This document shows, in pieces, positions 1,332 through 61,378 of a stretch of DNA of 64,000 bases. The stretch covers positions 173,352,001 through 173,416,000 of the forward strand of contig NC_042999.1 in assembly GCF_006345805.1 (NCBI RefSeq). Direction: 5' to 3'. Below the pieces are notes generated by a model, which saw only the letters and a program-made list of their open reading frames with translations, had not been told where the DNA came from and did no database searches. A program made the translations under genes and the position numbers. This DNA is from Octopus sinensis (taxonomy: Eukaryota). Numbering within the stretch: the stretch's first letter is position 1; every line of letters starts with the position of its first letter.

Positions 1332-1717
1332 TTACTCTTTACTCTTTTACTTGTTTCAGTCATTTGACTGCGGCCATGCTGCAACACCACCTTTACTCGA
1401 GCAAATCGACCCCAGGACTTATTCTTCGTAAGCCTAGTACTTATCCTATCGGTCTCATTTGCCGAACGGCTAAGTTACGGGGACGTAAACACACCAGCAT
1501 CGGTTGTCAAGCGATATTGGGGAGACAAACACAGACAAACGCACACACATATATATACATATATACGGCAGGCTTCTCTTAGTTTCCGTCTACCAAATCC
1601 ACTCACAAGGCTTTGGTCGGCCCGAGGCTATAGTAGAAGACACTTGCCCAATGGGACTGAACCCGGGACCATGTGGTTGGTAAACAAGCTACTTACCACA
1701 CAGCTACTCCTGCGCCT
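1332..1717 (-). mobile_element. tRNA-derived SINE (cephalopod OK/OR-like), near full length
   Basis: Minus strand begins AGGCGCAGGAGTAGCTGTGTGGTAAG (A box) ... GGTTCAGTCCC (B box), then GGGCAAGTGTCTTCTACTATAGCCTCGGGCCGACCAAAGCCTTGTGAG, shared with copies at 17816 and 19966; ends in a short AGAGTAA-type repeat tail. Confidence 0.85.
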
Positions 1718-1789
1718 ATGAGACAAGATGTTAGTTACATCTTGTCTGATGTACACACTCGCTCGCACACATACACACACACCACACGC

Positions 1790-1857
<68 letters not shown>

Positions 1858-1862
<5 letters not shown>

Positions 1863-2680
1863 TTATATATAGAGGGCATTATACATACATGCCAGAAGGC
1901 ATTATAAATAAATGCCACACGCTAAGAGGGACAATTAGTCATTTCTACCAAAAATATTACTAATCCCACCGAATGCAATTTTTCAAAGTAAGACATTTAA
2001 AAAATGTCTTAGCGTGTGGCATTTATGTATAATGCCTTCTGGCATGTATGTATAATGCCCTCTATATATAAATTAATATGTTCAATAAGAAATAATTATT
2101 TTCGAAATTTTTTCTCTTATGAGGTTTTCACGCTATCTACCTGACAATTTCTTGTTAAGTTTTCCTTATTAAGTAGTTGTCCTTAATTGCTAAATTTTTA
2201 TTCCGAAAAAACTTTTCCTCTCCCGAAATGCAATTCGTAAAAGTTTGCCATTTATCCGGATGTAATATATGTAAACTCACCCATGTGCTTCGTTGATGTT
2301 GATCAGTTAGCTGATCGGCTTAAGCGGGGCAGGGTCGTTGTTTATTTATAATACATTCAGGCCTGCTGATGAATACGTAAGTATGAAATCACTGTGATAC
2401 AGGTCTATATTTTTTTAAATGTCTTACTTTGAAAAATTGCATTCGGTGGGATTAGTAATATTTTTGGTAGAAATGACTAATTGTCCCTCTTAGCGTGTGG
2501 CATTTATGTATAATGCCTTCTGGCATGTATGTATAATGCCCTCTATATATAAATTAATATGTTCAATAAGAAATAATTATTTTCGAAATTTTTTCTCTTA
2601 TGAGGTTTTCACGCTATCTACCTGACAATTTCTTGTTAAGTTTTCCTTATTAAGTAGTTGTCCTTAATTGCTAAATTTTT
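1858..2680 (+). mobile_element. Non-coding hammerhead-bearing element, family A (pLTR/retrozyme-like): 1.4 tandem units plus inverted 5' arm
   Basis: Direct repeat 2007-2199 = 2488-2680 (period 481); arm 1858-2004 is the reverse complement of ~2411-2555; (TA)n on both sides; no ORF; HHR inside. Confidence 0.85.
2359..2406 (+). ncRNA. Type I hammerhead ribozyme (family A)
   Basis: Stem I AGGCCTG/CAGGTCT; core CTGATGA 2366-2372; stem II ATAC-gtaa-GTAT; GAAA 2385-2388; palindromic stem III TCAC-t-GTGA; AUA triplet, cleavage predicted after 2399. Confidence 0.9.
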
Positions 2681-2983
2681 ATATATATATATATATATTC
2701 TTATCGATCAACTTGCGCGGATGACTTCTCTATGGTGATTAAATATTTGTCCTGCACTTTAGCTCGCTCCCTCCATCCAATCGACACTCCTTGTACTAAA
2801 TTATTGTGCCCTTTGCGTCAGATGTGGAGGTTATCGTAGGAGAACGTGAGACGAAATGTGTTGCTCAAGAACGCAACTCGAGAATGTAACCTACGATCTG
2901 GCGTGCAATACACTAACTAGAAGGCTATGCGCCTTCACACACAAAAACACACACATACATACACATAAACACACACATAAATA

Positions 2984-4249
2984 CAAGGATTGAACAAAAT
3001 AATAGAAACACCTAGCATCATAGCATCATAATTTTGAAATATCTATAAAACCCTCAGAAGCTTGTCTATTTTTGTTTTTTATTTATTATTTGTGTTGCTT
3101 CATATGTTTTGCTAAAATTGGTGTTTCTTTTTAGATATCATCAGAAAAAAGTAATTGAAATTCATTAAAATGACAGATCTATCGGACTTTCAAAGAAGGA
3201 AATTGTTAGTGCTCCTATGGCATGCGCTAGCGTAACGAAAACAGACGATATATTTGGTGTATCTAGAAGTACTATCTCGAAAATAATGACAGGCTTTGAG
3301 AAAGAGAGAAAAACATCGTCGAGACAAAACTCCTGAAGAAATCCAAAACTTTCAGATAGAGACCATCAGACTCTTAAGGAAATTGTTAGAAAGGTTCATA
3401 AAAGTACAGATCCCAAAATTATTGCAGAGCTTAATGACCACCTCGGGAACCCAGTTTCCACAAAACTTTTCGCCAGGAGCTGCACAAAGCTGGATTTCAT
3501 GGGAGGGCTGCAATCAGAAAACAACCACTTTCAAAAACAACCATTGCAAAGCGTTTAGATTGGAATAAAATCCTACAGAATTGCTCCCTAGAATAGTGAA
3601 AGAATGTTATTTTTTCGGACGAGTCATCCTTTACCTTATTTCCAACTACCAGCTGAGTATACGTATGAAGACAGACAAAATACGCATTTGATCAAGACTG
3701 CCTTCTTCAAACTTTTAAACATGGAGGAGGATCTGTGATGATCTCGAAGTTGGGTGGGGTATATCATGGAAATCCGCCGGCGCAGTGGTTTCCCTTCATA
3801 GCAGAATTAATAGTCAAGACTATTTAAGTATTTTATCTGATCAAATTCATCCTATGATTGCGGAACTGTTTCCGGAGGGAAACGCAATCTTTCAGGATGA
3901 TAATGCACCAATTCACACAGCAAAAGTTCTTACTGAATGGCACGATGAACATTCAAGTGAAGTTGAATATTTTATCTTGGCACCACAGTCTCAATATTAT
4001 TGAACATTTATGGTGCATATTAGAAAAACAAGTAAGGAGTCGATAACCTCCACCATCATCACAACAAGTACTGGAGGTTGTTGTAGCTGAAGAATGGATA
4101 AAAAAGTCCTTTGGAAAAAGTTGAAACTTTGTACGAGTCCGTACCTCATAGAATTCAGGCTGAGCTTACTGCCAAAAGCAATCCTACCCCATGTCAAAGT
4201 AAATTTGTTTGAAATTTTAAGGTGTTCCCATTATCCTGTCCAACCCCTG
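2984..4249 (+). mobile_element. Tc1-like DNA transposon, full length, transposase disrupted
   Basis: Imperfect ~30-bp TIRs (CAAGGATTGAACAAAATAATAGAAACACCT / AGGTGTTCCCATTATCCTGTCCAACCCCTG) flanked by TA; motifs FSDES, KHGGGSVM, FQDDNAPIHTA, LNIIEHLW broken by stops and frameshifts. Confidence 0.92.
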
Positions 4250-4253
4250 TATG

Positions 4254-4284
<31 letters not shown>

Positions 4285-4292
<8 letters not shown>

Positions 4293-4452
4293 TTAGAGAC
4301 AAAACCACTATTTTGCAAATCAAACAAACAAAGACTTAATCCAATACATAAAAAAATTCTAATTAATATTATATAATATTTTACTATAAAATTGGATTCA
4401 ATCCTAAATCTGATTTTCCTTGTAAATTTGGATTTATTCCCTAATATTTATT
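4285..4452. repeat. Two oppositely oriented fragments of the family found at 56147-56360
   Basis: GAGACAAAACCACTATTTTGCAAA... matches 56237-56290; 4370-4450 is the reverse complement of 56147-56232; bounded by (TA)n. Confidence 0.7.
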
Positions 4453-4457
4453 ATTAT

Positions 4458-4493
<36 letters not shown>

Positions 4494-4608
4494 ATATATA
4501 TATATGTGCGTATGTATGTAAGTATGAGTGTGTGTGTGTGTTTGTGTGTTTGTATGTATGTATGTATGTACGTATGTAGGTATTTATGTAGGGATTTATG
4601 TATATGTA

Positions 4609-5150
4609 ATATTTTAAATTTAATTAAATTCCATTTCCCTTTTGATATGATTAAACATTATAACTTTTTGGATAATTTTCGGTTAAAGTTGGCGGTTTAT
4701 TGTAGCTAACGATAGGACTGCGATTGCGCAGAAGAATTTGAAAAGTTACTTCGAATAAACAGTAGACAGACAGCAGTTCTTGTCTTCTGTCTTATATGTT
4801 TTAACCCCAGGTTGGCCCTCGCCGAAAAAGATCAGACCTTGTGAGTTCCCCTGACTTGCCAAATGAAGATCAGAAAGCAATTTTGGTCCGGGGTATTAAA
4901 TGGTAAATGTTTTTCATTTCCAAATTTTGTTCCTGTCGAATCTTATCCGTTATTGTTGTGGTTCTCTAATGTGCTGAATTTTCACTCTAAGTGTGGATTC
5001 CCTATGTGTATAAATATACACTATCGTATAATTAATATATAGTCTTCTTGACTAATTTTTGCACGTTAGACCATTGGAAATGCAAATTTTGATTGAATAT
5101 TTTAAATTGAATTAAATTCCATTTCACTTTTGATATGATTAAACATTATA
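4609..5150. repeat. Non-coding unit with ~55-bp terminal direct repeats (period ~488)
   Basis: ATATTTTAAATT.AATTAAATTCCATTTC.CTTTTGATATGATTAAACATTATA at 4609-4662 and 5097-5150; second copy runs into (TA)n. Confidence 0.7.
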
Positions 5151-5618
5151 TATATATATATATCTTGGTCACTGCTTCTGTCCTCAGCCTTCCATCTCCT
5201 TGGTACCCTCAATCTCTGTCCCTCTTTCCCTCTCTCTTACCCCCTTCTCTCTCTTACCCTCTTACCCTCTTGCGACTTGCTGCCTCAGCCATTCCGTTGC
5301 CAACGGCCGCTTGTTTAACATGTGTCTCCTCACCGAAAAGGTAATTATTTTTCCACGCTTGCTGATAAATTGTTTTTGTGTCTCCTTTTGTCTCAAAGCC
5401 GTAGGGCGCCTGTGTCATCCCTGTTTTTAACCGTTACTGTCTTCAAAAAAATTTTTTTCGTTTCGTGTTCGTCTCTGTTGCGTTGCATTCTTTCCTTCTG
5501 GGGCTGGCCGTGCGATGACGAATCGGTTTCTGACTGAAGAACGAAGGCTTTGAATGACCCGTCTGTCTCTTATGTTCGTCCCTTCGTGTATTTCACGTTA
5601 TTTATATATGTAAAGGTT

Positions 5619-5698
<80 letters not shown>

Positions 5699-5989
5699 GT
5701 ATGTATGCATGTTTACATACATATACACATATATACATACATACAAATATGTATATATTTATACGGTATGTAAGTATGGGCGTGTGTGTGTGTCTGTGTG
5801 TGTGTGTTTGTGTGTGTATGTGTGTGTGTGTGCGTGTGTTTGTGTTCGTGTGTACAAATTCCTGCCAACAAAAGCATACACATTCACTTTAAGAAAAGCA
5901 TAACGTGTAGGCGTATTTTAATACTGTGCTTATTCAGACGCCACAGTATTAATACATGTTACCATAACTCCACAATTACAAATCGAGCT

Positions 5990-6980
5990 CAAATTGCCAA
6001 CCATTTGCTTCAATACATTTATAAATAAGGCGAACCGCTGCTCGGGCAACGTTGGTAAAAGTATCAAATGGGATTTCTGTACTTGTCGCTAAAATTTCTT
6101 CCCGAATTTCTGTCAGTGTAGGGGTTCTCTACGACATACGACATTCTTTAGTGTTAACCATAAAGTCTGCAGCTGCTAAATCAAGAGAACGTACGGGGAA
6201 CTCGGCGGTACCTCTTCGTTCTATCCAGCCTCTGAGAAAATTTCTCATAAAGTAAGCTTGCAGTATTGAGTCGGCGTGCCGTCTTAATGAAAGAACAAAA
6301 TCTTTTCTATAAAGTACCTGTATGGCAGATAAATGGACGTGTATAGCATGTCTAGGTATGCTTGACCAGAAAAACTGGTCCTATTAAACCTCTTGATGAG
6401 ACTCAACATCATCAGTCATTGACCAATGGTATACTTACATGCGTTCCACGTCCAAGCAAAGACTTTCTGGTACCCAGTAAACACACATATGTCGGTTCAT
6501 TATTCCATTTAGATTAAATTGTGCTTCACCAGAGCAACCATTCGTGCCCACAGTTTCTGCACCTTCACCGACCATGTGTTGAAGCCACTCACATAGCTCA
6601 ATCCTTCGGTGTGGATTGCCATCGTTAATTGCATATTAACTTTGGATGTAAACTTTCCACCTAGCTCTTTTAGGAACCCGTCCGTCCTCTGTTTGTACAG
6701 CATATTTAGTTTCACGTGCACTTCTGTAAGTGATTATGGGAAATGTTCCAACATCATAGTCAAGGAAGCAGCACTTGTTTGTGTAAGAAGTCTGCCAGAG
6801 TTTCCAATGTGCATATCACTCATACAAAGATATCACGAATCCGAGAAATTGTCAGGCGTGTTGGAGGTTCTGTTCCAAACGCAAGCTTCAATTGTTGAAG
6901 CTCAACGACATTCTTAAATTAGACGTACCACTTTAAAATGGTCTTACGTCCCTAAAACAACAGCTGTAACACGCCATTTC
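5990..6980 (-). mobile_element. Degenerate Tc1/mariner transposase (DUF4817-type N-terminus)
   Basis: Broken translation ILKWY..KNVVELQQ..FGTEPPTRLTISRIRD, RRIELCEW, SGEAQFNLNGIMNRHMCVYW, GLIGP, DGTPTQY, WIERRGTAEFPVRSLDL, matching consensus SDEA.F.LNG.VNRHN..YW / QDGAPPHY / WPPRSPDL. Confidence 0.8.
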
Positions 6981-7514
6981 GTTAAAATTGTTCACAATAG
7001 TATCAAAAAGTAATCAGAAAGTTTCCATTGTGTTTTTTTTTTAATAATTGCCCAATGATTATTTCATACGTCAGCAATTAATAAAGTCAACCTAAATTTT
7101 TCAATATCACACCTTGCCAACAGTAAAAATTGTGGTATATTAAAAATGAAATCCGTTTGAAAATATTTCATTAAAATGCAGTTTTATTCTCAAGCCATCC
7201 ACGTTAAAAAGTGCCTAGATAAAGCAAAATATGTTAAAGGTGACTTGTATTAATCTCGTAATATCTGTCTTTTTATTATTAAAAAATTGCTACAGATTTT
7301 TCTTTTCCTTTTTCGCTTAAATGTGTATACATTTTCTGGAGGACTCTGTGTCTGATACATTCGTTCATCTCTTTCCAATGATACTTGAATTAATTCCAAA
7401 AATATTTTTATGGTAGTTTTTCTGTTTTGGGGTCGCATCTGTATATTTTTCTAAAACGTTTGTTTATTGTTTTTTTTTTATTTTTATGAATTTTATCTCT
7501 AGTCAGACATAAGA

Positions 7515-8435
7515 ATAGAGTATCCAAGTATACAGAAGCTATCATTTTCGACACCGGCTTCTCTTCGCTTTAGGAAGTTCCAGAGCTGCCTTTGCCGCTC
7601 GAGGCATTAGTACTGAATGCATAGAAAGTACTATTCCTGAAGGAACTGCTCAAAACTGGATTTTTTGCGCTTTAAGAAGGGAATATTCGAATTCACAGGC
7701 TCTCCGAGTTCTAGCCGATCTATTCAATTCAATGAGGATCAATTGAACGGGGTAACCCTCGCGTAACCAAAATACTTTATATTTATTCCAAAGGTAAAGT
7801 CCAAAACCTCGGTGCATGAAAGAAAGTGACACAGTCCAGCGCTCCCGACCCGCCGCCTCCAGTTTGTTTGTATTATACCAGGCTACAAGTGAAAATAAAC
7901 AGATTTCTTTACTCCGTCACTGGCGATAAATTATGGAGAATGCTGGTCAGTATGAAGCAGAAAAAGAATTACTGACACGACAAAGTAGCAACTTCTCGAG
8001 CCAAGCGAGAGCTCCATACACAATATAATGACGCGTTTGGTGGGATTGCGAAGCGCTAAGTTTTGTTTTACCAAACTCTTCAAAACGACCGTATGTCATT
8101 TAGAAAATACACTGGCTAAACGAGGCAATCCAGCTGAAATGACTCGACCAGTGACATGTCATACTTACCTCTGCATCGCTAATTTTATCACGAATGTTAT
8201 TTAAGAACTCGATAGGCAGTTCCACTGCATCCGCCGTATTCTCCTCATATTGTGTCTTCAGATTATTGGCTTTTAGGTCACTCTCCGACAGTCTGTGACG
8301 TAGTTTTGTTCGAAAATGTGGATTGACGAACTCTTCGAGTCAACCCCGATGATGTCACCCGTTAACGTATTGACGAGTTTGTAGAAGGTTGGAAAGAACA
8401 CGTGAGGAAGGAAGGAGAATAATTACTGACAGAAT
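7515..8435 (+). mobile_element. Degenerate mariner (Mos1/Hsmar-like) transposase
   Basis: Fragments HFRHRLLFA, IPEGTAQNW, FKKG.FE..GSPSSSRSIQFNEDQLN, GKVQNLGA, RFLYSVTGDKLW, VWWD, IDEFVEGWKEHV..EGE follow the mariner consensus in order. Confidence 0.75.
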
Positions 8436-9139
8436 TCTTAAAAGTATTGGTGAAAAAGGAAAATTAAAATAAATGAAAACAAAACAAAACAATATAGCCG
8501 AACACACGATATTCTAAAGATAGATTGTATATAACTCACCTCACAAATACAACTGTACATGCAAACAGTAAACTTTTGACAGCGTGTATGGACTTTAGGC
8601 TTAGTTGCCGTCATCGGTTTGTAGTTTAGTTTGCTTTTCAAGTCCTATATTTAATGTTTTTGAATTAAGGACCTTTTCGTAAATCGAGCAATTTGTATGG
8701 AAAATTGTCGCACTATAACTGAGTTTGCAAGAAGGAATAAGTGATTATACAGGGAAGAGAAATCTGAAAGATCTTACTACATATGGAAGCATATAAGAGA
8801 GAAAATGAAAGAAAATGTAGCAGATATTGTATATAGCTGCAATGTCCATGCTGCTTCTTCTGTTTCTTTTTCACACCAAACTGGAGATATATAACTGTAA
8901 TTTTAATTAATTTTTGGGATATTTTTCATCAGTTGATATTTTCCTTATTTGCCACCCATTATTAGTATGTAATACTCCCACTTGATATTTTGCGTTTTGA
9001 TTTCGATTGCTTTGGTATTGTGACACCGTATGTCAACGATAGAAAATCTTTTGCCGCTCTATTCTGTTGAATGCATAAAACACACCGTGGATAATAGAAC
9101 GAATTTTTGATGTGATAGTTGGTGAAATTGATTATGAAA

Positions 9140-9420
9140 CTCGGACGTGTCTAGACTTTTACCCCAATTAATGCAATTGTTTTCTTAACAGCAATATTAG
9201 TGAAAATGCTTTCAACTTCCAGAGTGTCTATGTGTTTTTCGCGGACATTATCATTGAATAGCCCCCAAAAGACACATGATGATTGTAAACTATATCTCTA
9301 AACTGTGAACTGCTTCAAAATATCATCCAATTATTTGAAAAGCGAGCGTAGGTGAAGTTATTTGGGAATTATAAGACGAAAGAATCCATATTTTTGTGGA
9401 TTTTTACATTTTCGCTGATG
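9140..9420 (-). mobile_element. Old Penelope-like RT remnant
   Basis: Minus strand gives NVKIHKNMDS.RLIIP.ITSPT ... LDDILK ... TLEVESIFTNIAVKKTIALI, resembling PLE RT motifs K.HK...LRPIIS...PTY and SLDVESLFTNVPV.ETI. Confidence 0.6.
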
Positions 9421-10067
9421 TAAGCAAGATTGAGCTTTGTTTTTGTGGTAGAATGGAATATTTTCTATTTGTGAGATTGCTGCATTAATTAATTTCTAAA
9501 GCAGTGTTTAATGGACGTATTTTCCCACAATTAGCATTTGTTATTATGCAATACATTGTTAATATTCTTATATATTTATCTTTATCCGTAAATGTGAATT
9601 AAACTTATCAGTCCTTCATATTATTATTAATCATTAGTTTTCCATATTTTCGAGTTAAGCCTTTTATCGATGTGTATGAATTAATGTATATTCTTTTCTT
9701 TCTGAATAAGTATTGAAGTTTGTCTTTATTTTGGTATATTTCGTTCAAAGGATTAGAAGAGGATTTCATATTTGAATTTCCATTCGTTGTTGTTGCATTT
9801 CTCTTAGAGAATGTCACTATCAAGTTTGAAGCGCGAAATGTGTGTGTACGTTAGAAAATTAACGAATTCGAATTTCTGCTTTATCAAAATTATTTTACTC
9901 TCATTGAACATGTTTAGATATGTTGTATTGCTTATTGATATGTGTGAAAAATGTCATTATACAATAGCTGTGAGTAAAATATTTACTAAATTGTGTTATG
10001 TGCCACTATAAATTTCTTTTTAATATGTACAAATTCAAAATATAGTTCAATTACAAATCCTAATATA

Positions 10068-10299
10068 TATTGCTTTATTGCCCACAAGACGCTAAACATA
10101 GAGGGGACAAACAAGGACAGACAAAGGGATTAAGTCGATTACATCGACCCCAGTGCGTAACTGGTACTTATTTAATCGACCCCGAAATGATGAAAGGCAA
10201 AGTCGACCTCGGCAGAATTTGAACTCACAACGTAGCGACAGACAAAATACGGCTACGCATTTCGCCCGCCCTGCTAACGTTTCTGCCAGGTCGCTGCCT
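10068..10299 (-). mobile_element. tRNA-derived SINE with Meta-like central domain and 17-bp target-site duplication
   Basis: Minus strand TGGCAGAAACGTTAG (A box) ... GAGTTCAAATTC (B box), GGTCGACTTTGCCTTTCATCATTTCGGGGTCGAT; TSD TTACAAATCCTAATATA at 10051-10067 and 10300-10316. Confidence 0.88.
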
Positions 10300-10506
10300 T
10301 TACAAATCCTAATATACTCTGCATTTCTTGCATTTACTTGCTTTACTGTCTAGTTTACATAAGAGAATTTTAAAAAAAAACATTTATTTTGAAGACTAAG
10401 GGCGTTTTCTTTTAAAGCCTTATATATATATATATATATATACTACAACCACAAGCATAAAATACAAAGAAATCATAGTTTCTAACAAAATATAAAGTGC
10501 AAATAA

Positions 10507-10558
<52 letters not shown>

Positions 10559-10742
10559 TAAGCAATAAAGGGTTTAGCAACGAATTGCCTTACCACATAC
10601 CGAATTTAGAAATAGCAGTCAAAGAGTTATAGCTATTTCTTCTACTAAAAAGGGAGATCTCAGTAAAAACAGCAATTGGAAGGCAGACACAACAGGTAAG
10701 AGAGAATGAATTGACGGCAATCTATCATACATTTTAAGTTAT

Positions 10743-10837
10743 CTACGGACGCACGTTTCGAATCAAGTTTTTAGGAAGCATAAGAATTAAATATTAATAA
10801 TTCTACCTTACCAAAACTTCTTTTCTCCTCAGCGTAG
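10743..10837 (-). ncRNA. Type I hammerhead ribozyme, long stem II (copy 1)
   Basis: Minus strand CTACG-CTGAGGA-long hairpin-GAAA-CGTGCG-TC-CGTAG; GUC cleavage triplet. Confidence 0.88.
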
Positions 10838-11267
10838 AATACTATAATCATAAATAATCCGCAACTAGTACCACCAAATTCAATGTGTGAATGAAAAGAT
10901 TGTGTCACCAGCCCCTTCCCACCCGCGTGTAGCCAAAACAAGATGCTGTGGTCATCTACTGAGATAAAATATGGTTATCCGTAATAATGAAGGGTGAAAT
11001 TAATTAATTTTGAATAATTATCAATTACACCAAGTAGTCTTCGGCATGTAAAAGCCTCATTCGAGGAAAATTTAAGTAATACTAAACAATAAAGGGTTTA
11101 GCAACGAATGCCTTACCACATACCGAATTTAGAAATAGCAGTCAAAGAGTTATAGCTATTTCTTCTACTAAAAAGGGAGATCTCAGTAAAAACAGCAATT
11201 GGAAGGCAGACACAAACAGGTAAGAGAGAATGAATTGACGGCAATCTATCATACAATTTTAAGTTAT

Positions 11268-11365
11268 CTACGGACGCACGTTTCGAAATCAAGTTTTTAG
11301 GAAAGCATAAGAATTAAATATTAAATAATTCTACCTTACCAAAACTTCTTTTCTCCTCAGCGTAG
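11268..11365 (-). ncRNA. Type I hammerhead ribozyme, long stem II (copy 2)
   Basis: Stem I CTACG/CGTAG; core CTGAGGA; 69-nt stem II (GAAA/TTTC, AAGTTTT/AAAACTT, AGAATTA/TAATTCT); GAAA; self-complementary stem III ACGTGCGT; C17. Confidence 0.9.
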
Positions 11366-11797
11366 AATACTATAATCATAAATGAATCCGCAACTAGTAT
11401 CACCAAATTCAATGTGTGAATGAAAAGATTGTGTCACCAGCCCCTTCCCACCCGCGTGTAGCCAAAACAAGATGCTGTGGTCATCTACTGAGATAAAATA
11501 TGGTTATCCGTAATAATGAAGGGTGAAATTAATTAATTTTGAATAATTATCAATTACACCAAGTAGTCTTCGGCATGTAAAAGCCTCATTCGAGGAAAAT
11601 TTAAGTAATACTAAACAATAAAGGGTTTAGCAACGAATTGCCTTACCACATACCGAATTTAGAAATAGCAGTCAAAGAGTTATAGCTATTTCTTCTACTA
11701 AAAAGGGAGATCTCAGTAAAAACAGCAATTGGAAGGCAGACACAAACAGGTAAGAGAGAATGAATTGACGGCAATCTATCATACAATTTTAAGTTAT

Positions 11798-11895
11798 CTA
11801 CGGACGCACGTTTCGAAATCAAGTTTTTAGGAAAGCATAAGAATTAAATATTAAATAATTCTACCTCACCAAAACTTCTTTTCTCCTCAGCGTAG
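11798..11895 (-). ncRNA. Type I hammerhead ribozyme, long stem II (copy 3)
   Basis: Same motif as copy 2, 530 nt away. Confidence 0.9.
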
Positions 11896-14766
11896 AATAC
11901 TATAATCATAAATGATTATATATTGAATTTTGAGATACTAGAAGGCACCAACTCAACTCAGTATCAGAGCGAGCTAGAATCCGCAACTAGTATCACCAAA
12001 TGCAATGTGTGAATGAAAAGATTGTGTCACCAGAATATATATATTCTTATTTGCACTTTATATTTTGTTAGAAACTATGATTTCGAGTTCAAATAAATTT
12101 CCATGACCTAACTTCTAAATAATTTAATTCCAATGGTGGTTCTTTGTATCAATTTTTATTGTAGGTATTAATAATGAGGTATATGTCGTGCATGACCTTT
12201 TATTTGTAATCAGACGATTTGAAATATCATTTAACATTACAGCTAGGTTTTTTTCCGCAGTGAGCCGTTGTTCTAACTTGTGTATTCCACAAACTGGCTT
12301 TTCAAATACAAGGACATTTTCATCATGAGGAAATAGTTGCAGTGCAACGTATCCCATCCAAAAATGTCGGTACAATCTATTTCAGGTTGAGCTGAATATT
12401 ATAAGGGGAGTATGAAATAAGGCAAATTTAAAAAACAGTAATCCTCATCAGCTAATTTCTTATACGTATCATAATGCATATGGATTTGTAAACAACATCA
12501 AATCATTCTGTTTTAAAATCGCTTTAAAATATCTGCGCATGTAACATGGCTTTACACATATATACATGATTTTGCATGCAGGAACTATGTTATGTGAGGA
12601 GAATGCCATAGGTTTTCCATTTTTAACAATAAATCATTCACATTTAGCTTATATTTTCGATTTTTCCGAGATCGCAACTGAGCACATTTAATTTTCCAAG
12701 AACGTGGCTACGATTAATATATTTTCTCGTATATTTTACTGATTATATTATCAATAAATAGAATGTTTCCCAAAATATGCTACCCAGATCAAAGGTTTGG
12801 GGATGAAATTCTTAGAAAATTGCGAAAACGACTGCAATATTTTGTAAAAGTTTTAAAAAGAACACCACTTGTCGTGATCTCGAATATGGTTATTGATTTA
12901 TTGTAAAAAGAAAAAGATCTGTCAGATATTTTTCCTTATTAACATGCCAGCTCGTCCTTTACCATACACTAGAACTTTCCATAATAAAAAAATACAATAT
13001 TTTTGTGTGTGCATGTGTTGTGAGTTTATGCTTGTGGTTGTAGTCTAGATGTTCGACTGTGTCCGTATCTGTGTGGGTGCGATATTCATTATGGGACTTT
13101 AAAAGCCTTTTTCAGTATATTAATAAGTTTATAAGTAAAGATATGACAGACATAGTATTAGAAAAGCACAACTATGTAGCTTGTCCGTTGCTTTCTCTTT
13201 TTGCAAAGATTCCAATATTCGCGTTTCGCAAGACTCTTTGTAAGATTTCTAAGTACTATCTACTAGCAAAGATTGCATTGCGAGGTAGTAGGTTAGAAAG
13301 CAAGAATAAACAATACGTGCTTCATTACTGGAGCAAAGCTGCATCTGTGGATAATGTATTTATCTCATGTGAGACTGATCCATATGGTAGTATATAAATG
13401 CGATAGAGTAAAATTTACTATCAAACAACGATATTATATAATTAATAAGTTTCAGGGTAGAGTACAGATACTCGTGTAATATATCGCGATATCCCTGCCT
13501 ACTTATTCTTGCATATTTTCTTTTCACTATTTAATGGTATTCCTAGACGTGAAAGAATTCCGATATATAATATTCGATTACATCTAGTACGGGTTTTTTT
13601 TAGTATATTTATACTGAATAACGTATTCCTACTGTCGTTACTGTGTTGGTATGCAAAACGAATGTTACACGGATAAAATTACGGTATGAAAATAGGAACC
13701 CAATTTTATCGCATGAAGAGAAATTGTACTAAGGTTTTTTTTTGGCGCCGGGAAAACCTGGCAATGTATTTGAAAAGTTAATATTTTCTTAATGAATGCC
13801 GCTAGCAATTTTCTATATTAGATGTTCTACTATTAGGGTGACTCAGCTGTTTTTACATCTTCTGCACATGGAAGTATATGCCATTGGCAATTAATTTATT
13901 TTTTCTAAATATCAAAACTATTTGTGACAGCATATTAATTTGTCGTATCAACGTATTTTTGATCATATTTAAAATAATTTTCTGACGCTGGAACTCGTAC
14001 ATTTTCAAATTTATTAAATAGTATGATTCCAAATACAGATTAGTTCATGCCAAATAGCATTTTGTGAAATCCAAATTACATAAAACAATTCTAAGAACAT
14101 CTCAAAATGACAATTTTATGACATCGGGTTACAAATGACACTAAAGCTTCTTTCGAGTGTTTTTAGTTGGACGTGACAAATAATTATTGATTTTTCAGCG
14201 ATTTATATTCGTTGTTTATACTAGACTCATAGCTTAAAGCATTGTACTAGGAAATACTTTGTTTGCTTATATTTTGAAATAGAGTAATTTTGAGGGATTC
14301 AGACAGGTAGCATTTTCTCCCTGTAATAACAGTAATTTTCCATGTTGAACCAGATATTTGTTTTACTGAACATCTGAATAAACTGCTTAGGACTTCTATA
14401 ACAAACAACATTCAATTTCGTTCGTTTCCTTCGATTACGTAAATGGAAAGTGAAGTTTCTGTTTTGAACATTCATGCTCGTTTATAGATAATACATTTCA
14501 ATTTTCAATAAATTTTGATACTGCATATTGTCTGTAGATACAGTTACATGGAGAATTCTTACTCAACAGTTCTTTTTCATGTAATGATTCAGATTATGAA
14601 AATGCTTCTTCACTAAATCATATCGGGAAATGCTTGAAATCTCAAAGCTAAAACGGATGACATCAGAACCAAGTGTGGCATACTGAAGAAACCCCTATAG
14701 TAAATTTGTTCACTACTCTTACCCCGTTTAAAATTAACGACTTTCCATTAAACGCCAGGTCTAAAA

Positions 14767-14799
<33 letters not shown>

Positions 14800-14803
<4 letters not shown>

Positions 14804-14903
14804 CTGAAGATATTATGCTTAATTTATAGGTATATATACAATATGTGTGTGTGCATGCACGTATGTTAATACATGTATTATACATATACATGTACGCATG
14901 TAC

Positions 14904-14934
<31 letters not shown>

Positions 14935-15036
14935 ATATTTACTGAAGATATTATGCTTAATTTATAGGTATATATACAATATGTGTGTGTGCATGCACGT
15001 ATGTTAATACATGTATTATACATATACATGTACGCA

Positions 15037-15045
<9 letters not shown>
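14800..15045. repeat. Local tandem duplication (period 138) between (TA)n tracts
   Basis: ACTGAAGATATTATGCTT...GTACGCATGTACA identical at 14803 and 14941. Confidence 0.9.
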
Positions 15046-15074
<29 letters not shown>

Positions 15075-15326
15075 AATTTAACAATTAAGGATAACTTCTT
15101 AATAAGGAATCTTAACAAGAAACTATCAGGTAGTTAGCGTGAAAAACCTCATAAGAGAAAAATTCGAAAGTAATTTTTTCCTTTTGAATATATTAATTTA
15201 TATTATATAGAGGGCATTATTACACATAAATGCCTCACACTAGAGGGACATAAGTCATTACTACCAAAATTTCACTAATCATACCCAATGCAGTTTTTCA
15301 AAGCAAGACATTTAAAAGATGAATTT

Positions 15327-15393
15327 AGTCCTATATCACCTGTGATTTCGCACTTACCGCATAAAAAATGCGTCTATGTTCATCGGTAGAACT
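15327..15393 (-). ncRNA. Type I hammerhead ribozyme (family A, CCGAUGA core, first stem II pair mismatched)
   Basis: Minus strand AGTTCTA-CCGATGA-ACA...TGC-GAAA-TCAC-ag-GTGA-TA-TAGGACT. Confidence 0.75.
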
Positions 15394-15648
15394 GATTCTG
15401 AATACATCATAAATAAACGACCAACACTACCTGATAATTTCTTGTTAAGATTCCTTATTAAGAAGTTATCCTTAATTGTTAAATTTTTTCCGAAAAATCT
15501 TTTCCTATCCGAAATGCAGTTCGAAAAAGCCCGCCATTTACCGAATATATGATTTATAAACATCTCCATGTGCTTGGCCGGAGAGAGCAGTTGCCTGTTC
15601 GACTTCGCCAGGTAGTGTCGGTCGTTTATTTATGATGTGTTCAGAATC

Positions 15649-15715
15649 AGTTCTACCGATGAGCATAGACGCATTTTTTATGCGGTAAGTGCGAAATTAC
15701 AGGTGATATAGGACT
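15649..15715 (+). ncRNA. Type I hammerhead ribozyme (family A, CCGAUGA core)
   Basis: Stem I AGTTCTA/TAGGACT; CCGATGA 15656-15662; stem II GCA/TGC extended by CGCAT/ATGCG hairpin; GAAA 15693-15696; stem III TTAC/GTGA; AUA triplet. Confidence 0.82.
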
Positions 15716-16254
15716 AAATTCATTTTTTAAATGTCTTGCTTTGAAAAACTGCATTGGGTATGATTAGTGAAATTTTGGTAGTAATGACTTATGTCCCTCT
15801 TAGTGTGAGGCATTTATGTGTAATAATGCCCTCTATATAATATATATATATATATATAGATACGTACAGGCGTGTTCACACCTACATATCATAGTATGTG
15901 TAACACTGGCATTAAGTTTCTCTCACGCATAATATCTGTGTATATACACACTCACAAACACACACTGGTGTGCATGTATGTAAGCTGGAAACTAATAAAA
16001 TCTCGGCGTATATATTATGCAGTATTCGATACGGCATTCCGTCTCACTATACATTAACCCTGATATTCAATGAACTCCCTTGGTGCACGGAATTCAGGCA
16101 CATATCACTGATTGAGTAAATTGGTGTGCAGGCGTGGTTATGGATACGAAAATTGTTTCCCATCTACAAGCTTATGAGTTCAATGCTACCACATGACAAC
16201 TTGTGAGAGTATTTTTAGCTATAGCCACTATATAAACTTAGATAAAATAAGACT

Positions 16255-16893
16255 TAGATATGCTTCGGCCAAAGATGGGTCCAGGCCATGTCTAACTTAA
16301 TAGCCCCACCTGATAGGATTATCTAAATCCTTTTTAAGTCAAGTTGTGTGGTATTATAGTCCATTCAAGTAGTGAGTTCTTGTTGGGTGAGTTGTATCCA
16401 GGTATGAGTGGCTTATGTGGTATTCTTTGAAGTAATTTGTCCAGACTCCGTTTAAAGGTGATGGGATATTTTTCCTCTTTGATCGGTTTTGGGACAGAAA
16501 TTTTGTCGCAGTGTACCTATATGTTGTGATCCTGAATTGGGCAGGGGACGTATGGCCCGTGGTCACAGTCTTGGATGAACCTTGAAGCTAATGTTCAGGT
16601 CGTTTAGGCAATGAGGGTAGTATATTCTTCCCATCGTTCCAATGATGTACCGCTCGCAGCGGCGCTGGAGAGATTAGAGTAGCATGGCTTTAAGGCGGTC
16701 CCAGTAATCGAGATCTGTCATGCCCTTAATTCGTTTAGTAAGTGCTCACTGTGTTGATTCAATTTTTGAATGGGGAGATCACAGAGAGCAGCAGTATTTG
16801 AGGTGTGGCAGTATAAAGGAAGAGAAAAGTGGAATAACACTTGTTCTCTGGACCGGAAGGTTCTTAAGATCCAGGAGCTCATCCTACGAGCTA
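16255..16893 (-). mobile_element. CR1/L2-type LINE 3' fragment
   Basis: KVDVARRMSSWILRTFRSRE, YWDRLK, SLQRRCERYIIG: typical post-RT region of CR1-group ORF2. Confidence 0.75.
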
Positions 16894-20140: not shown

Positions 20141-20952
20141 TGTATATGTATATCGCCTCCCCCACACCCCACACTACTACACAACACACCACCACACCAC
20201 ACACCATCATACCACACCATACCACATCACAACAGGCCCCTTCCACACGCACATACACGCTCTCACATACATACGCACGGGCACCTTTGTTTTCGGATTT
20301 ACACTAGTTTATTATCTCCCGTTCTTCCTAGCCCTCCTGTGTGAAAACCCTGTCCGGCATTCGCCATGATAGATCGGTAGCCACTAAACCTTTTTCTGCT
20401 TTCTCTCCCTGTTTATTTTCGTGTTCCCTCCCGTCGAAGAGCCGTAGGCTCGAAACGTAAAAGACTTTCTCACTTCCTGAGCGTTAAACTAATACATCTG
20501 TTTGTTGTTTACACACCCGTCTGCGACTTTTTTTTTGTAAATCCTCAATATATATATATATGAGTGTGTGTGTGTTGAAAAAATACGGTTGAAAAAGTAC
20601 ACATTTCGATCTTCACTCTAAGTTCGGGATGATGTCAACCTTATAGTAGATTCTATAGCCATATCAAGTTTCCAAATCTCTCCCCCACATTTCTTCTCTC
20701 ATAAACTATGGTAAACTAGCAAAATATTGTTAACCAAGCCAACATACACTTAGTTCGTTGCAGACTACATCGGTGGACGCTTTTTCAATAGACTGCTATT
20801 CAAATGGTTGGTAGCAAATACAATTGGTATCTTCCTATGCAGCAGACACACGCGCTGGACAAATTTAAACCAAATATGCCGTATAATTGACTGTAGAAAA
20901 CAATATATGCCGATGCTATTAATCTCCGTATTCATTGTAATTACTTTATGTC

Positions 20953-20983
<31 letters not shown>

Positions 20984-20993
20984 TGTGTGTGAA

Positions 20994-21026
<33 letters not shown>

Positions 21027-21298
21027 ATACGATACTAGGTATATAATTGTGTTGAGCATGCATAATGTTATGAATACTTATAACATTACGCACAAATAAA
21101 ATTTAAGAGTTATGTTTTTTGTGTCTTAATATCAATGAAATTTCAGTGGATTAAAACAGTAAATACGCCTGTGTTGTTATTCAAGCATGGTGGTGTTCTA
21201 TAGAGAAAATAATACAGAGGAATATTGAGGACAGTTGTTGTGTATAAAGTAGAAACTGACAATATGCATACATAAACGCACAAATACACGTATATACA

Positions 21299-21374
<76 letters not shown>

Positions 21375-22209
21375 GTATATGTATATCGCCTCCCCCACAC
21401 CCCACACTACTACACAACACACCACCACACCACACACCATCATACCACACCATACCACATCACAACAGGCCCCTTCCACACGCACATACACGCTCTCACA
21501 TACATACGCACGGGCACCTTTGTTTTCGGATTTACACTAGTTTATTATCTCCCGTTCTTCCTAGCCCTCCTGTGTGAAAACCCTGTCCGGCATTCGCCAT
21601 GATAGATCGGTAGCCACTAAACCTTTTTCTGCTTTCTCTCCCTGTTTATTTTCGTGTTCCCTCCCGTCGAAGAGCCGTAGGCTCGAAACGTAAAAGACTT
21701 TCTCACTTCCTGAGCGTTAAACTAATACATCTGTTTGTTGTTTACACACCCGTCTTCGACTTTTTTTTTGTAAATCCTCAATATATATATATATGAGTGT
21801 GTGTGTGTTGAAAAAATACGGTTGAAAAAGTACACTTTGACCAACTACGTCTCGTATTCTCATTTCGATCTTCACTCTAAGTTCGGGATGATGTCAACCT
21901 TATAGTAGATTCTATAGCCATATCAAGTTTCCAAATCTCTCCCCCACATTTCTTCTCTCATAAACTATGGTAAACTAGCAAAATATTGTTAACCAAGCCA
22001 ACATACACTTAGTTCGTTGCAGACTACATCGGTGGACGCTTTTTCAATAGACTGCTATTCAAATGGTTGGTAGCAAATACAATTGGTATCTTCCTATGCA
22101 GCAGACACACGCGCTGGACAAATTTAAACCAAATATGCCGTATAATTGACTGTAGAAAACAATATATGCCGATGCTATTAATCTCCGTATTCATTGTAAT
22201 TACTTTGTC

Positions 22210-22242
<33 letters not shown>

Positions 22243-22252
22243 TGTGTGTGAA

Positions 22253-22283
<31 letters not shown>

Positions 22284-22555
22284 ATACGATACTAGGTATA
22301 TAATTGTGTTGAGCATGCATAATGTTATGAATACTTATAACATTACGCTCAAATAAAATTTAAGAGTTATGTTTTTTGTGTCTTAATATCAATGAAATTT
22401 CAGTGGATTAAAACAGTAAATACGCCTGTGTTGTTATTCAAGCATGGTGGTGTTCTATAGAGAAAATAATACAGAGGAATATTGAGGACAGTTGTTGTGT
22501 ATAAAGTAGAAACTGACAATATGCATACATAAACGCACAAATACACGTATATACA

Positions 22556-22560
<5 letters not shown>
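20141..22560. repeat. ~1.2-kb tandem segmental duplication bounded by (TA)n
   Basis: 20141-21302 and 21374-22560 nearly identical; offset 1233, rising to 1259 after a ~26-bp indel near 21836-21861. Confidence 0.95.
20431..20465 (+). ncRNA. Family B hammerhead-like motif, decayed (duplicate at 21664-21698)
   Basis: CCGTCGA-A-GAGCC-gta-GGCTC-GAAA-CG-TA-AAAGAC; stem I weakened. Confidence 0.4.
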
Positions 22561-26059: not shown

Positions 26060-26204
26060 ATAATATTATATGAAATAGACTTGTATTCCCATGCAGGAAA
26101 GAATATAAAAAAATGGTTTGCTTCAGGGTTTGAATATACACCTGAATCTAAAAACGCGTAGTCGTTTTTAAATTTCGAAGATTTATTCATATACCATACT
26201 AGTT

Positions 26205-27248
26205 GGTGCCTTCCTCTCAGATCGCTCCTTCCAAGTCCAAGTAAATGGTTCGCTGTCCGACGTCTTCAGTGCGAGCAGTGGTGTGCCTCAAGGTTCAGTG
26301 CTTGGGCCCTTATTGTTCTTAGTCCTCATAAATGACTTGCCCGACGACCTCACGCAACACACCCTTCTATTTGCCGACGATGTCAAACTGGTCGCTCCTC
26401 GCGGTGATATAGAGGATCTTCGTCGATGCCTCCACCAAATTTGGAGATGGTCTAACGAAAGGGACCTGTGTCTGAACGTGTCAAAGTGCTGTCATCTGCC
26501 TGTTGGCTCTCCTCCTGCAACTCGATTTCGAGCCGGGTCGTCTGCTGCTGGAGAGGACCGACCAGGTAAAGGACCTGGGTATCTTGGTAGATTCCCCCTT
26601 TTCGCCTTCGGCCCAGTGCGTCCATCCTGCCAACAAAGCACGCGGAGTTCTGTTCTTGATTCGACGGTCATTCGGAATGCTCACAGCAGCCATATTCCTA
26701 CCGCTCTATGTCACGCTGGTGAGACCCATATAGGAGTACGGGATTCAAGCTTCTTCTCCTTATCTCCTGAAAGACATACAGCATCTCGAAAGAGTTCAGA
26801 AGCTGGCTACCCGCATGGTTCTTGGTCTCAAGACTTTGTCTAATGAAACTAGGCTGAAGACGCTCGACCTTTATTCTCTAGAAAAACGGCGACGCCGTGG
26901 TGATCTCATTCTTGCTCACAACATCATAAGCGGAAAGTGTAACCTCTGGAAAGAGCTGTTCTTCACTCCTGCTCCAGAGCGTCGGCTGCGGAGTCATTCC
27001 GAAAAGCTCTATCTGCGACGATTTCATCTCAATCGAAGAAGAGGGGCTTTCTCCGTCCGGGTTGCGGATCCGTGGAATAAGCTGCCGGACGAGATGGTGA
27101 AATGCCGACGACCGCTCGGTTCAAAGTCTCCCTTGACCACAAGTGGCCTGAACTCTTTACATGAACACTAACCGGTACGTAACTCCATGCCCCCCTACAT
27201 GGCTTTGCTTTTTGCTTTTTGAGCCAAAAAATTAACTAACTAACTAAC
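26205..27248 (+). mobile_element. CR1/Jockey-group LINE, 5'-truncated RT and 3' UTR with (TAAC)n tail
   Basis: FLSDRSFQVQVNG...SGVPQGSVLGPLLFLVLINDLP...LFADDVKL, KDLGILVD, LYVTLVRPI, LYSLEKRRRRGDLI, FSVRVADPWNKLP; a few frameshifts; tail TAACTAACTAAC; possible AGTT duplication at 26201-26204 and 27250-27253. Confidence 0.93.
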
Positions 27249-39870: not shown

Positions 39871-41091
39871 AACAAGAAACAAGATAAGGACAAATATCCG
39901 TCAAATGTAAATAATTGGTTTGAAATGTTGGCGCAAGGCAATCAATTACGGGTGAACCGGGATGGTTGATTACATCAACCCTAGTTGATTCTATTGACTT
40001 TGAAATGATGGAAGAGAAAATCAACCTTGGTGGAATTTACAATTCCATATATTAATACGCATAAACGTAGAGCTACCAATCTTGAAACAGAATAGAGTGA
40101 TCAATATTTACCTCCCTGTACTTATTTTATAGACGTCAGAGTTCGTAAACTTACTTTTCGTATGAACCCAAAGAGGACTTATGAATTTACATAAACCTGA
40201 GTTAAGGAGTTGCTAGCAAGTACAGGGAAAATTCAATTTTACATGAAATATAAAATGTTATGCCATATCATTATGGTATGTTGATTATCGCATGATTTAA
40301 TAACATCGGTGACGCACGTCAATGCCTCTTCGATTTGATTCAATTCTATATTTCGCCAAGAAAACAACCTCAAAATACAAGTAAAATCCTTTTTCTTTTA
40401 TTTTTTACTGATACCAAAAGACTAGTTGTGTTTTTTTCTCACGAGTTGTTTTAAATAAAATATTACTACTCTGCACCTAATTTTCTATCAATCAAATCAT
40501 TCTGGAGTTTATACTTACATAAAATTATTTCGTAGTTTTTTTTTTATCATATTTATTTTTTCTATGTTAATTTTTCACATATTCTTTCACGCTTTAAACC
40601 AAATGTGCCCATGTACCGGACACCCATTCTTTTCCTTCAACCGTTTTTTCTTATTTCCCTCCATCTCCTTTTCCTCTTTCTCTCTTGCTCAGTATTACCT
40701 TTTTTCGTTTTTTTCTCAACTTCCTCATTCGTCACGAGTTACTGTTCAACCTTCTCTGTTCATGTTGAAATACATTTATCTAAATGCTTTTGACAAGCTT
40801 ATTTTCCTTTTAACAATACTGAGATTTGTTCAAAAAGATCCTTTATTCTAATCGTTTTGATCGATATATTTGGTTGCCTTCAAATATATTTCTGTTGCAC
40901 CATTTTCTACATTATCATTCCATGGTCGAAACGTGAAACTCGATGAAAATATTTTTGAAATAATGCTCTGTGTGAAATTGTGGATTTTACGTTTGACAAT
41001 AAATCAATGAAAATGTAAAATAATTAACTATTTGCTATATTTCTCAATATCATAAAAATAATCTAAAGTATAATATATATATATATATATT

Positions 41092-41213
41092 ATATAGAGG
41101 GCATTATTATACATAAATGCCTCACGCTAAGAGGGACATAAGTCATTACTACCAACATTTTACTAATCGTACCCAATGCAGTTTTCGAAGCAAGACATTT
41201 AAAAAATGAATTT
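41092..41213 (-). repeat. Family A fragment starting just 3' of the hammerhead
   Basis: Matches 15205-15326 (TAGAGGGCATTATT...AAGACATTTAAAAAATGAATTT); abuts (TA)n. Confidence 0.85.
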
Positions 41214-41218
41214 ATGAA

Positions 41219-41497
41219 TACCTCGCTCAGAGATTTATTATTGCTATATATATATATATATAGCAATAATAAATCTCTGAGCGAGGTACAAACAGTAGCT
41301 GCACGACATCGTAAAGTATATATAACTCTTAAGAGTGGATGCTACTGTAGCTTGTAGCCCCAGGAGGACACCTCCTCCAGCTGGCTAGTGTATCATACAG
41401 GCTGAAGACGGGAATGATGGCTTCGCTTTGCAATAGCCAGCTGGAGGAGTGTCTTCCTGGGGCTACAAGCTACAGTAGCATCCACCTTTAAGGGTTA
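41219..41497. repeat. Two adjacent foldbacks
   Basis: TACCTCGCTCAGAGATTTATTATTGC / GCAATAATAAATCTCTGAGCGAGGTA perfect arms around (TA)n (41219-41289); ~63-bp arms 41324-41388 / 41434-41497 around a spacer containing CTGAAGA. Confidence 0.85.
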
Positions 41498-43897: not shown

Positions 43898-45982
43898 ATG
43901 TAGATGCACAGGCACACATATATAGCAGACACACTTATAAGTATATAATGCTTTGTGCACATATATGTGTGTTTGTGTGTTTGTGACTCTGCGTCTTTGT
44001 GCGTGTGTCTCTGTGTTTCACTATGTGTGTGTGTGTGTATCTGTGTGTATGTTTGTGTATGTGAAAGCGTGTGTGTATATACATAGGGTGTTATATGTGT
44101 AACTAAGAATATATGTCTCTTTCTGTTGCTGTAGTTTAAATTATTTTAACATTTGGAATGTTTACTTTGTTGGCGTATATTAAAAAAAACAAAAAACTAT
44201 ATATTGCTTTCAAGTTTATTTTCAATATTTCTCAGTCCTGCACAAAACACGAAAAGAAGAAAGAAAGGATTACCAGTTAAATTGAGTAAATAAATTTTTA
44301 ATGTAATTTATATCATACTTAAAAACTGAATCGTTGATAAATTCTAATAAAATGTCTCTGTTATGGTTGCTGAAAGTTAGAAGATGATGAGGCTGCCAGC
44401 ATAATAGATGAAGTCAAGCAATATTGAAAACCACGATCTACATACATATACAGAAGTAAAAGTTGTTCTCAGCTATATTTTTCTATTTGCTCTAGTTATA
44501 GGAGTCTCCATCGACAGGGCCACTAAATAAGTATTGAATTATATATATTTTTTTTAAATCAACAAATTCTGTGATATAGAACTCTAGTATGATAGTGAAT
44601 GGACTGATATTGCCATATGAGATGTAAGAATTCGATTTTTGATAACAATTTATAATGCAATAAACGAAATATTCTATAGGGATGGATTCACATTTTGTCA
44701 GATGACAATTTAATATTTAAATGTGACTGAACGAAAGGAGTACAGAAAATGAGTAGAAGGTCATATCAAAGACTTCATTATTATTAATTTATTCTTCCTA
44801 TGTTTAGTGTTCAGATAGTATCAGAAATGGCTTTGTTTACCACTCAAAATTACTTGAATCATATACAACCAACATACAGCACGTGAGAATACTAGATTCG
44901 TAATTCATCAAAGCAAAGAGAATATTCGGCTTGTATCTCATCAAAAGAAAATCCTGATAATTTTGATTTGTAACAAAAACGTATGGTCTAATACTGTGCG
45001 GGAGTATATAAGTCAATAACAGAGTAAAGTACGTGATGTAGAAAGACATAAGACAAAGAAAACATAGATAAAGTAAGTACCGTTAGGTATTTTCTTTGAC
45101 CCTCGATCGATTCTGCAAAAATCAAAAATGTACAGAATTTAGCAGAGGGCACGAGAATCGTGCATAACGAACGAAGATTCTATTAGATAGATATTAGTAC
45201 TTAACTGGCTCTTAATTTATCGCCCCCTGACTGATACATGACAAACTTTAATACAATCGAAACTTAATAAAAAATTTAAAGGACTACATATAAATACAGA
45301 ACACAGAATATCTAAGTTAGTCAAGTACTACAAGTATTCTACCGCCCATCACTGTCCTTTATTTACGCAAAACCTTATGTTGGTAAATATAGGTCGAGTG
45401 CATATCAATATGTTGACAATACTTACAACGATGTATTATTTCTTTGCAAATAGCTACAAAAGGCTTCTTGTCATACCTTCAAGTATTTTCTCTTGTTTGA
45501 GACTTTGTTTAGATTTACATGGAGTATTAGAGGTTTGTGGCAGTTTGCATAACGAAAAGAATATATGGGCAGTGTATATTCATTAACCAGACAAATATCC
45601 CTTTCATATAACTTTCATATCACCTTTTCATATCACTGATACAGTGTATTTTTTATCGCCTAAAAGCTGAACTCCCTGTGTCTTAGTGAATCTAAACATA
45701 AATTCTAGTACAGATATTTTGTAGAAATGGCAGGAAAACATTACGATAACTGAATGAGTCGTACAAGAGTATACAAGGCAAATTATAGTTCTTTTCTATG
45801 GCTGCATTAGGCATCAGGAAAGCAATAATTTCCCCATATACACACCTTAGAAGACACAAAATTTATTAGATGATAAGGCGCTGAAATGCCCCGACCTGTT
45901 CTATTGCTTAATTCCTTAGTAACTAACATCAGTAATAATAATGATGATAATAATAATGATAATAATAATAATAATAATAATA

Positions 45983-46020
<38 letters not shown>

Positions 46021-46023
<3 letters not shown>

Positions 46024-61299: not shown

Positions 61300-61346
61300 T
61301 GTCAAAATATTTTCGTCGCTTTGAAACCGCGACATGTTCACTGACA
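61300..61346 (-). ncRNA. Hammerhead with G3-C8 swapped core (left arm)
   Basis: Minus strand TGTCA-GTGAACA-T-GTCGC-ggtttcaaa-GCGAC-GAAA-ATAT-TT-TGACA. Confidence 0.72.
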
Positions 61347-61378
61347 AAAATTCGTGCTACATAACTTTTGTGAAGTTT

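Follow-up and report, generated by a model that had tools for sequence, protein, structure and literature searches.

Insertions of Penelope-like elements (PLEs) are characterised by units in partial tandem, a 5'-truncated copy in inverted orientation, a tail found at one end and a (TA)n target (PMC8557442). In vitro, a Poseidon protein makes cuts on both strands of AT-rich DNA, and the tail is defined by two internal sites from which reverse transcription starts (PMC11167929). In Penelope-type elements the hammerhead fold is conserved, yet PLEs with a catalytically dead hammerhead remain able to insert in vitro (PMC11167929). Among the animal retrozymes without long terminal repeats (non-LTR retrozymes), multimers are processed to unit-length RNA (PMC7229834; bioRxiv 10.64898/2026.07.22.740005), and a natural viroid hammerhead with C instead of U at core position 4 (U4C; Ambros and Flores 1998, via PMC3088659) is less active in vitro and retains infectivity. 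Here we describe three copies (E1, E2 and E3) of a hammerhead-bearing repeat in a 64,000-nt stretch of Octopus sinensis DNA (contig NC_042999.1, positions 173,352,001 to 173,416,000, hereafter the window). They are probably insertions of a non-autonomous, non-coding Penelope-type retroelement (an animal 'non-LTR retrozyme') that kept the hammerhead fold on its source elements and of which a U4C subfamily multiplied.

Insertion layout of the three copies

The copies and their parts are as follows (coordinates refer to the window).

1855-2682: E1, whole insertion, an inverted arm followed by a forward arm
1855-2004, minus strand: E1 inverted arm, reverse complement of 2411-2560 (144/145 identical to 2411-2555)
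1989-2011, no strand: E1 arm junction, a 10-bp fold-back palindrome
2007-2682, plus strand: E1 forward arm, in which a non-coding unit of 481 nt with 33% GC is present in 1.4 copies
2359-2406, plus strand: E1 type I hammerhead, canonical CUGAUGA core and AUA triplet
2546-2682, plus strand: 'tail' of ~130 nt between the short and long 3' ends, at a single end per insertion only
15074-15845: E2, whole insertion, an inverted arm followed by a forward arm
15074-15433, minus strand: E2 inverted arm, beginning at the equivalent of 15609, spanning hammerhead and tail, and ending in (TA)n with the 'long' 3' end
15327-15393, minus strand: E2 inverted-arm hammerhead, CCGAUGA core and intact helix III
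15427-15845, plus strand: E2 forward arm, whose 3' end in (TA)n is the 'short' one
15649-15715, plus strand: type I hammerhead of the E2 forward arm, with C in core position 4 (15657) and a 30-nt stem II region
15670-15684, plus strand: apical CGCAT/ATGCG hairpin of E2 stem II
41075-41214, minus strand: E3, third copy, a 140-nt stump nearer to E2 (117/123)

Read in the hammerhead sense, the 3' ends of all five arms enter (TA)n, at two positions separated by ~130 nt. In E1 and in E2, one 3' end is short and the other long (in E1 the inverted arm ends short and the forward arm long), and E3 has a short one. The 5' ends are variable and the arms meet at short homologies, namely the 10-bp fold-back in E1 and, in E2, seven shared bases by which the arms overlap (15427-15433). 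The two E2 arms are identical at 221 of 226 positions, with one indel, and within the E1 forward arm 2007-2201 equals 2488-2682 (195/195). The flanks of E1, E2 and E3 are mutually unrelated, marking three loci. The E1 insertion thus shows the partial tandem, the inverted 5'-truncated copy and the one-end tail of PLE insertions, and E2 the inverted arm and one-sided tail, a layout that matches the published one (PMC8557442). The longest stop-free stretch of the unit is 54 codons (in E1), and the family has the features by which retrozymes are recognised, being non-coding, low in GC (481 nt, 33% GC), equipped with a type I hammerhead and high in copy (280-800 contigs per run in the public data described below).

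The window holds further repeats. Adjoining the left end of E2, flank and (TA)n are duplicated in tandem over 138 nt (14769-15080), and of three palindromic elements (41207-41289, 41323-41497 and 61207-61518) the first, centred on (TA)n, abuts E3.

Hammerhead motifs and predicted cleavage

A type I hammerhead descriptor that permits C or U at position 4 gave six matches in the window and none in 100 block-shuffled windows; two of the six (2359-2406 and 15649-15715) belong to the E1/E2 family. The E1 motif has every type I element (CUGANGA, GAAA, UH, three helices, open at stem I), with stem I AGGCCTG/CAGGTCT, core CTGATGA at 2366-2372, stem II ATAC-GTAA-GTAT (4 bp, GUAA loop), GAAA at 2385-2388, a self-complementary helix III and a predicted cut after A2399; its AUA triplet occurs naturally in eggplant latent viroid (PMC1636495). 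The E2 forward motif has all of these elements save U4, with stem I AGTTCTA/TAGGACT, core CCGATGA at 15656-15662, stem II GCA(T)/(G)TGC and a predicted cut after A15708. Its helix III holds a private U.G (15698, within TTAC of stem III), at which C makes up 99-100% of depth in all four contig runs compared below. In the E2 inverted arm the first pair of stem II (10.1-11.1) is an A.C mismatch, and this hammerhead was hence missed by the descriptor.

All stem, core and hairpin sequences quoted in the original prediction, made from the sequence alone, are present where it placed them. Its statement that pairing is kept holds for the forward comparison, in which none of 15 pairs is broken, and fails at the A.C pair of the E2 inverted arm. 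Likewise, CCGAUGA does occur in both E2 arms, as it had said; we rejected the arms as independent confirmations of U4C because both belong to one insertion, so that they amount to a single observation.

The helix III segments of E1 and of the E2 forward arm form no hairpin when alone. Self-pairing energies of helix III are -10.1 kcal/mol for E1, -11.2 for the E2 inverted arm and -6.8 for the E2 forward arm, and because these segments pair with a second copy, cleavage as a dimer is predicted, a signature known from PLE hammerheads (PMC4209133). The hammerhead segments fold no better than their shuffles (z -0.81, -0.09 and +0.52). Two of the five arms, the E1 inverted arm and E3, lack a hammerhead and stop 11 and 6 nt past the predicted cut site, respectively (post hoc P ~0.009). 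These stops may be a hint of cutting in vivo, with run-off on cut RNA, and stalling at stem I or at the T run would give identical 5' stops in both. Searches fixed on CUGANGA, as well as Rfam's models, overlook real copies of such hammerheads.

Pair-keeping changes in the stems

When the E1 and E2 forward hammerheads are aligned with the core as anchor, 4 of the 15 pairs have changed on both sides (two in stem I and two in stem II), 3 on one side and 8 not at all, and none is broken. Stem letters differ at 11 of 30 positions, compared with 15% in the flanks (369/432 identical, 85%). MAFFT misplaces the E1 core when given the short hammerhead segments alone, and the register is correct with flanks or with core anchoring; in a MAFFT alignment (A1) that puts the outer stem I pair in a gap the two-sided count is 3, and registers slid along that alignment have none. 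Three of the four two-sided changes adjoin invariant core letters, while the fourth depends on gap placement.

Simulations that follow the flank pattern (200,000 runs) reached at least four two-sided pair-keeping changes at frequencies of 1.5e-5 and 5e-6, and of 0.003-0.005 at double the rate; among simulated runs with 11 changed letters, no pair was broken in 2/709 and 0/590. Moreover, both sides of stem I pair 2.1-1.1, next to the core, vary in all four contig runs (A>G 58-84%, T>C 38-99%, as site frequencies that carry no haplotypes). The hammerhead fold has thus very probably been under selection, to judge from these comparisons. This selection acted on past source elements of a mobile family, and the copies in the window are themselves decaying, because the E2 inverted arm breaks pair 10.1-11.1 and the forward arm has the private helix III U.

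The original prediction had been stronger on two counts. It had announced several compensatory changes in stem I, where two-sided changes are indeed present and number two. It had also taken the covariation within the window as direct evidence of selection on RNA structure; selection is very probable by simulation (5e-6 to 5e-3), but the comparison involves two lineages, the covariation is reached in 31/500 column shuffles and the selection acted on source elements. Covariation among PLE hammerhead families has already been published (PMC4209133).

The position 4 variant in public contigs

Part of E2 is found in 20 of the 24 public contig runs listed, which come from four coded organisms and nine studies, none recorded as RNA. 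We compared four of these (X1, X3, X7 and X8, one per organism) over 15434-15835, where 280-800 contigs fit per run. The measure throughout is contig depth, which is not copy number, and the counts are among the variants listed in a table that holds no haplotypes.

At position 4 (15657), T accounts for 87.5% of depth in X1, 77.8% in X3 and 100% in X7 and X8, leaving non-T depths of 2,780/22,313, 3,112/14,021, 0/463 and 0/2,209, respectively. The remainder in X3 is C, because no C>A or C>G site occurs among the X3 variants listed. The original prediction had named confinement of U4C to this single locus as grounds for abandoning it; instead C makes up 22% of depth in X3 and at most 12% in X1, and that part of the prediction is strengthened. 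Letters private to the window have a depth of 22-58 in X1, giving a ratio of ~50-120 for U4C. The variant would therefore be present at roughly tens of loci, and one locus cannot easily explain the depth. Measured against the conserved flanks the U4C form reaches 0.4-4% of depth, a low share because the divergent stem II is where contigs of other subfamilies are clipped. The zero counts of C4 in X7 and X8 are a weak absence, as contigs drop rare variants.

Among the variants listed, variation in the core is confined to position 4 and the free position 7. In its commonest form the family carries U at 10.1 (15663; 61-85% of depth) together with G at 2.1, and U10.1-U11.1 is a described natural hammerhead variant (PMC3088659). 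In X3 and X8, loose contig ends carry a stem II that is intermediate in length and topped by a small apical hairpin, the E1 form is present in X7, and record 30 of X8 (15626-15697, one gap) has a stem II of E2 length together with U4, in a run that is 100% T at 15657. On this contig evidence the stem II extension is a trait of the family, of which several versions exist; U4C is most likely a later change, on a long-stem-II background. The 'added' CGCAT/ATGCG hairpin of the original prediction is thus real and not private to E2, since intermediate and equal-length forms with U4 exist in the family. The idea that the apical hairpin compensates for U4C is weakened, as the long stem II also occurs with U4, and a U4C folding switch through loop 3 pairing was rejected, as swapping position 4 in silico shifts E2 folding by merely 0.4-0.8 kcal/mol. 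The conserved family pattern had no matches in metagenome contigs and none in viral contigs.

Mobilisation and alternative explanations

PLE biology suggests how such copies could be made. An autonomous PLE would supply the reverse transcriptase and GIY-YIG endonuclease that copy RNA of more than unit length; this enzyme would nick both strands of TA-rich DNA and start at two sites inside the RNA, with head-to-head joining of the two resulting cDNAs. Multimers would be cut by the hammerhead, probably acting as a dimer, to unit-length RNAs, which may circularise. Selection on source elements would have kept the stems paired during subfamily divergence. The U4C change would have arisen in one long-stem-II source element and then been carried to roughly tens of loci, probably slowing the ribozyme without stopping mobilisation, because insertion needs no efficient cutting. 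The simplest account is that a successful source element took a slower ribozyme along with it.

Several observations weigh against this interpretation. The tail is ~130 nt here compared with the published 30-40 bp in PLEs, and none of the 51 open reading frames (ORFs) of at least 110 aa in the window matches GIY-YIG, so that no autonomous partner is found in the window. None of E1-E3 contains two consecutive units with complete hammerheads, the definition of an 'active retrozyme' (Li, Clavereau and Pollet 2026, bioRxiv 10.64898/2026.07.22.740005). Rfam reports no hammerhead for the window at gathering score, nor do its 53 matches at E<=5 in 1500-16500 include one, and the minimum free energy structure of the monomer differs from the hammerhead fold by 2.4-3.5 kcal/mol. 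The column shuffles leave the covariation between two lineages not significant, and the nature of contig depth as stated above limits the copy estimate; in X1, one unplaced C>A site could fall at 15657, so that C is at most 12% there.

The same 51 ORFs include two with a match to RVT_1 and one to zf-RVT. The reverse transcriptase frames lie at 45877-48152 and 26172-26843, with zf-RVT in the reading frame that follows the first of these. Their motifs appear LINE-like, which we take to be their affiliation. No tRNA gene was found in the window in a search for an internal promoter.

It is conceivable, if on balance unlikely, that the U4C subfamily is active and was favoured since slower cutting spares uncut more-than-unit RNA for the Penelope enzyme. 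If that is true, the canonical, U10.1 and U4C sister subfamilies form a natural series that links cleavage rate to copy number, through which one could address directly why a ribozyme dispensable for insertion in vitro is kept in Penelope-type elements. A subfamily that multiplied with a core change that weakens cutting in a viroid is in any case a natural test of the level of activity required.

That U4C is instead fully active, with the remodelled stem II (a G-C pair plus apical hairpin) rescuing the core and both fixed by selection, we consider quite improbable. The depths of U4C and of the E2-type stem II are indeed similar (2,780 versus 2,421 in X1; 3,112 versus 2,535 in X3), the stems around the variant core are intact, and tertiary contacts have been proposed to offset variant cores (Perreault et al., PMC3088659). 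However, record 30 of X8 joins an E2-length stem II to a normal U4, which shows that the extension can occur apart from U4C; the U4C form accounts for a small minority, and the energy effect of the position 4 swap is slight.

Slightly more doubtful still is that U4C killed the ribozyme, leaving a dead-end burst from one well-transcribed source and a covariation inherited as a relic from ancestors before it. Activity is retained in the natural U4C variant of a viroid (PMC3088659), the canonical E1 forward arm was likewise copied through its hammerhead, and two organisms carry the U4C form, suggesting some persistence, even though the form is minor and was found in none of the contigs of the other two organisms, copying ran across the cut site in both E2 arms (whose template was therefore uncut or religated) and the dead PLE hammerheads insert in vitro (PMC11167929). 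Spread of the copies as DNA, by segmental duplication or as a satellite-like or fold-back DNA transposon with the hammerhead as passenger, is highly improbable: the long inverted arms resemble fold-back elements, a partner enzyme is lacking among the window ORFs and no target-site duplication is visible inside (TA)n, but fixed 3' ends, variable 5' truncation, a one-end tail and unrelated flanks at three loci indicate reverse transcription, and pair-keeping changes require selection at the RNA level.

Other features of the window

The window is microsatellite-rich, AT-rich eukaryotic DNA with two further hammerhead families. One, at 10469-12084 on the minus strand, consists of ~2.6 tandem units of 524-529 nt starting from (TA)n, with a 40-nt inverted end and type I hammerheads at 10748-10832, 11273-11360 and 11803-11890, each with a stem II region of ~70 nt; it thus has the two consecutive hammerheads of an active retrozyme. 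Its tandem units (10558-11915) differ mostly by single-base homopolymer indels, which suggests long-read assembly errors, and small differences between copies need care. The other has a type I hammerhead at 56319-56353 (minus strand) with a CUGAAGA core, a 5-bp stem II and a self-complementary helix III, and the sequence downstream of it matches 4292-4443 in both orientations. A duplication of ~1.2 kb lies at 20259-22558 (96-99% identity).

Comparison with described systems

The type of element, the covariation and U4C have each been described before, and the advance is modest. The E1/E2 family differs from the hammerheads of PLE pseudo-long-terminal repeats (pLTRs) in that it has no reverse transcriptase or GIY-YIG frame, and its stem I of 7 bp and helix III of 4-5 bp are unlike the minimal motifs of those hammerheads (PMC4209133), for which the core variant described, in the text available, is U3-A8 as opposed to U4C.

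The animal non-LTR retrozymes likewise have a non-coding, low-GC repeat unit, a type I hammerhead and more-than-unit copies, and are proposed to be non-autonomous PLE derivatives (PMC7229834; bioRxiv 10.64898/2026.07.22.740005). Their unit is typically ~300 nt, compared with 481 nt here, and unlike them the present copies are inverted-plus-partial-tandem with one same-strand hammerhead. Unit-length linear and circular RNAs are traits of animal retrozymes. In the axolotl retrozyme, helix II has a U.U mismatch at its base (PMC7229834), and U10.1 is the commonest form in contigs of the E1/E2 family. The available parts of these two sources (PMC7229834; bioRxiv 10.64898/2026.07.22.740005) do not mention U4C. 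In the literature covered, U4C was found for a viroid only and no multi-copy U4C retroelement subfamily was found; a prior report of U4C in PLEs may exist. The viroid hammerhead (Ambros and Flores 1998, via PMC3088659) has the same core change as E2, but there it belongs to a viroid, and here to what is apparently a multi-copy genomic retroelement subfamily in an animal.

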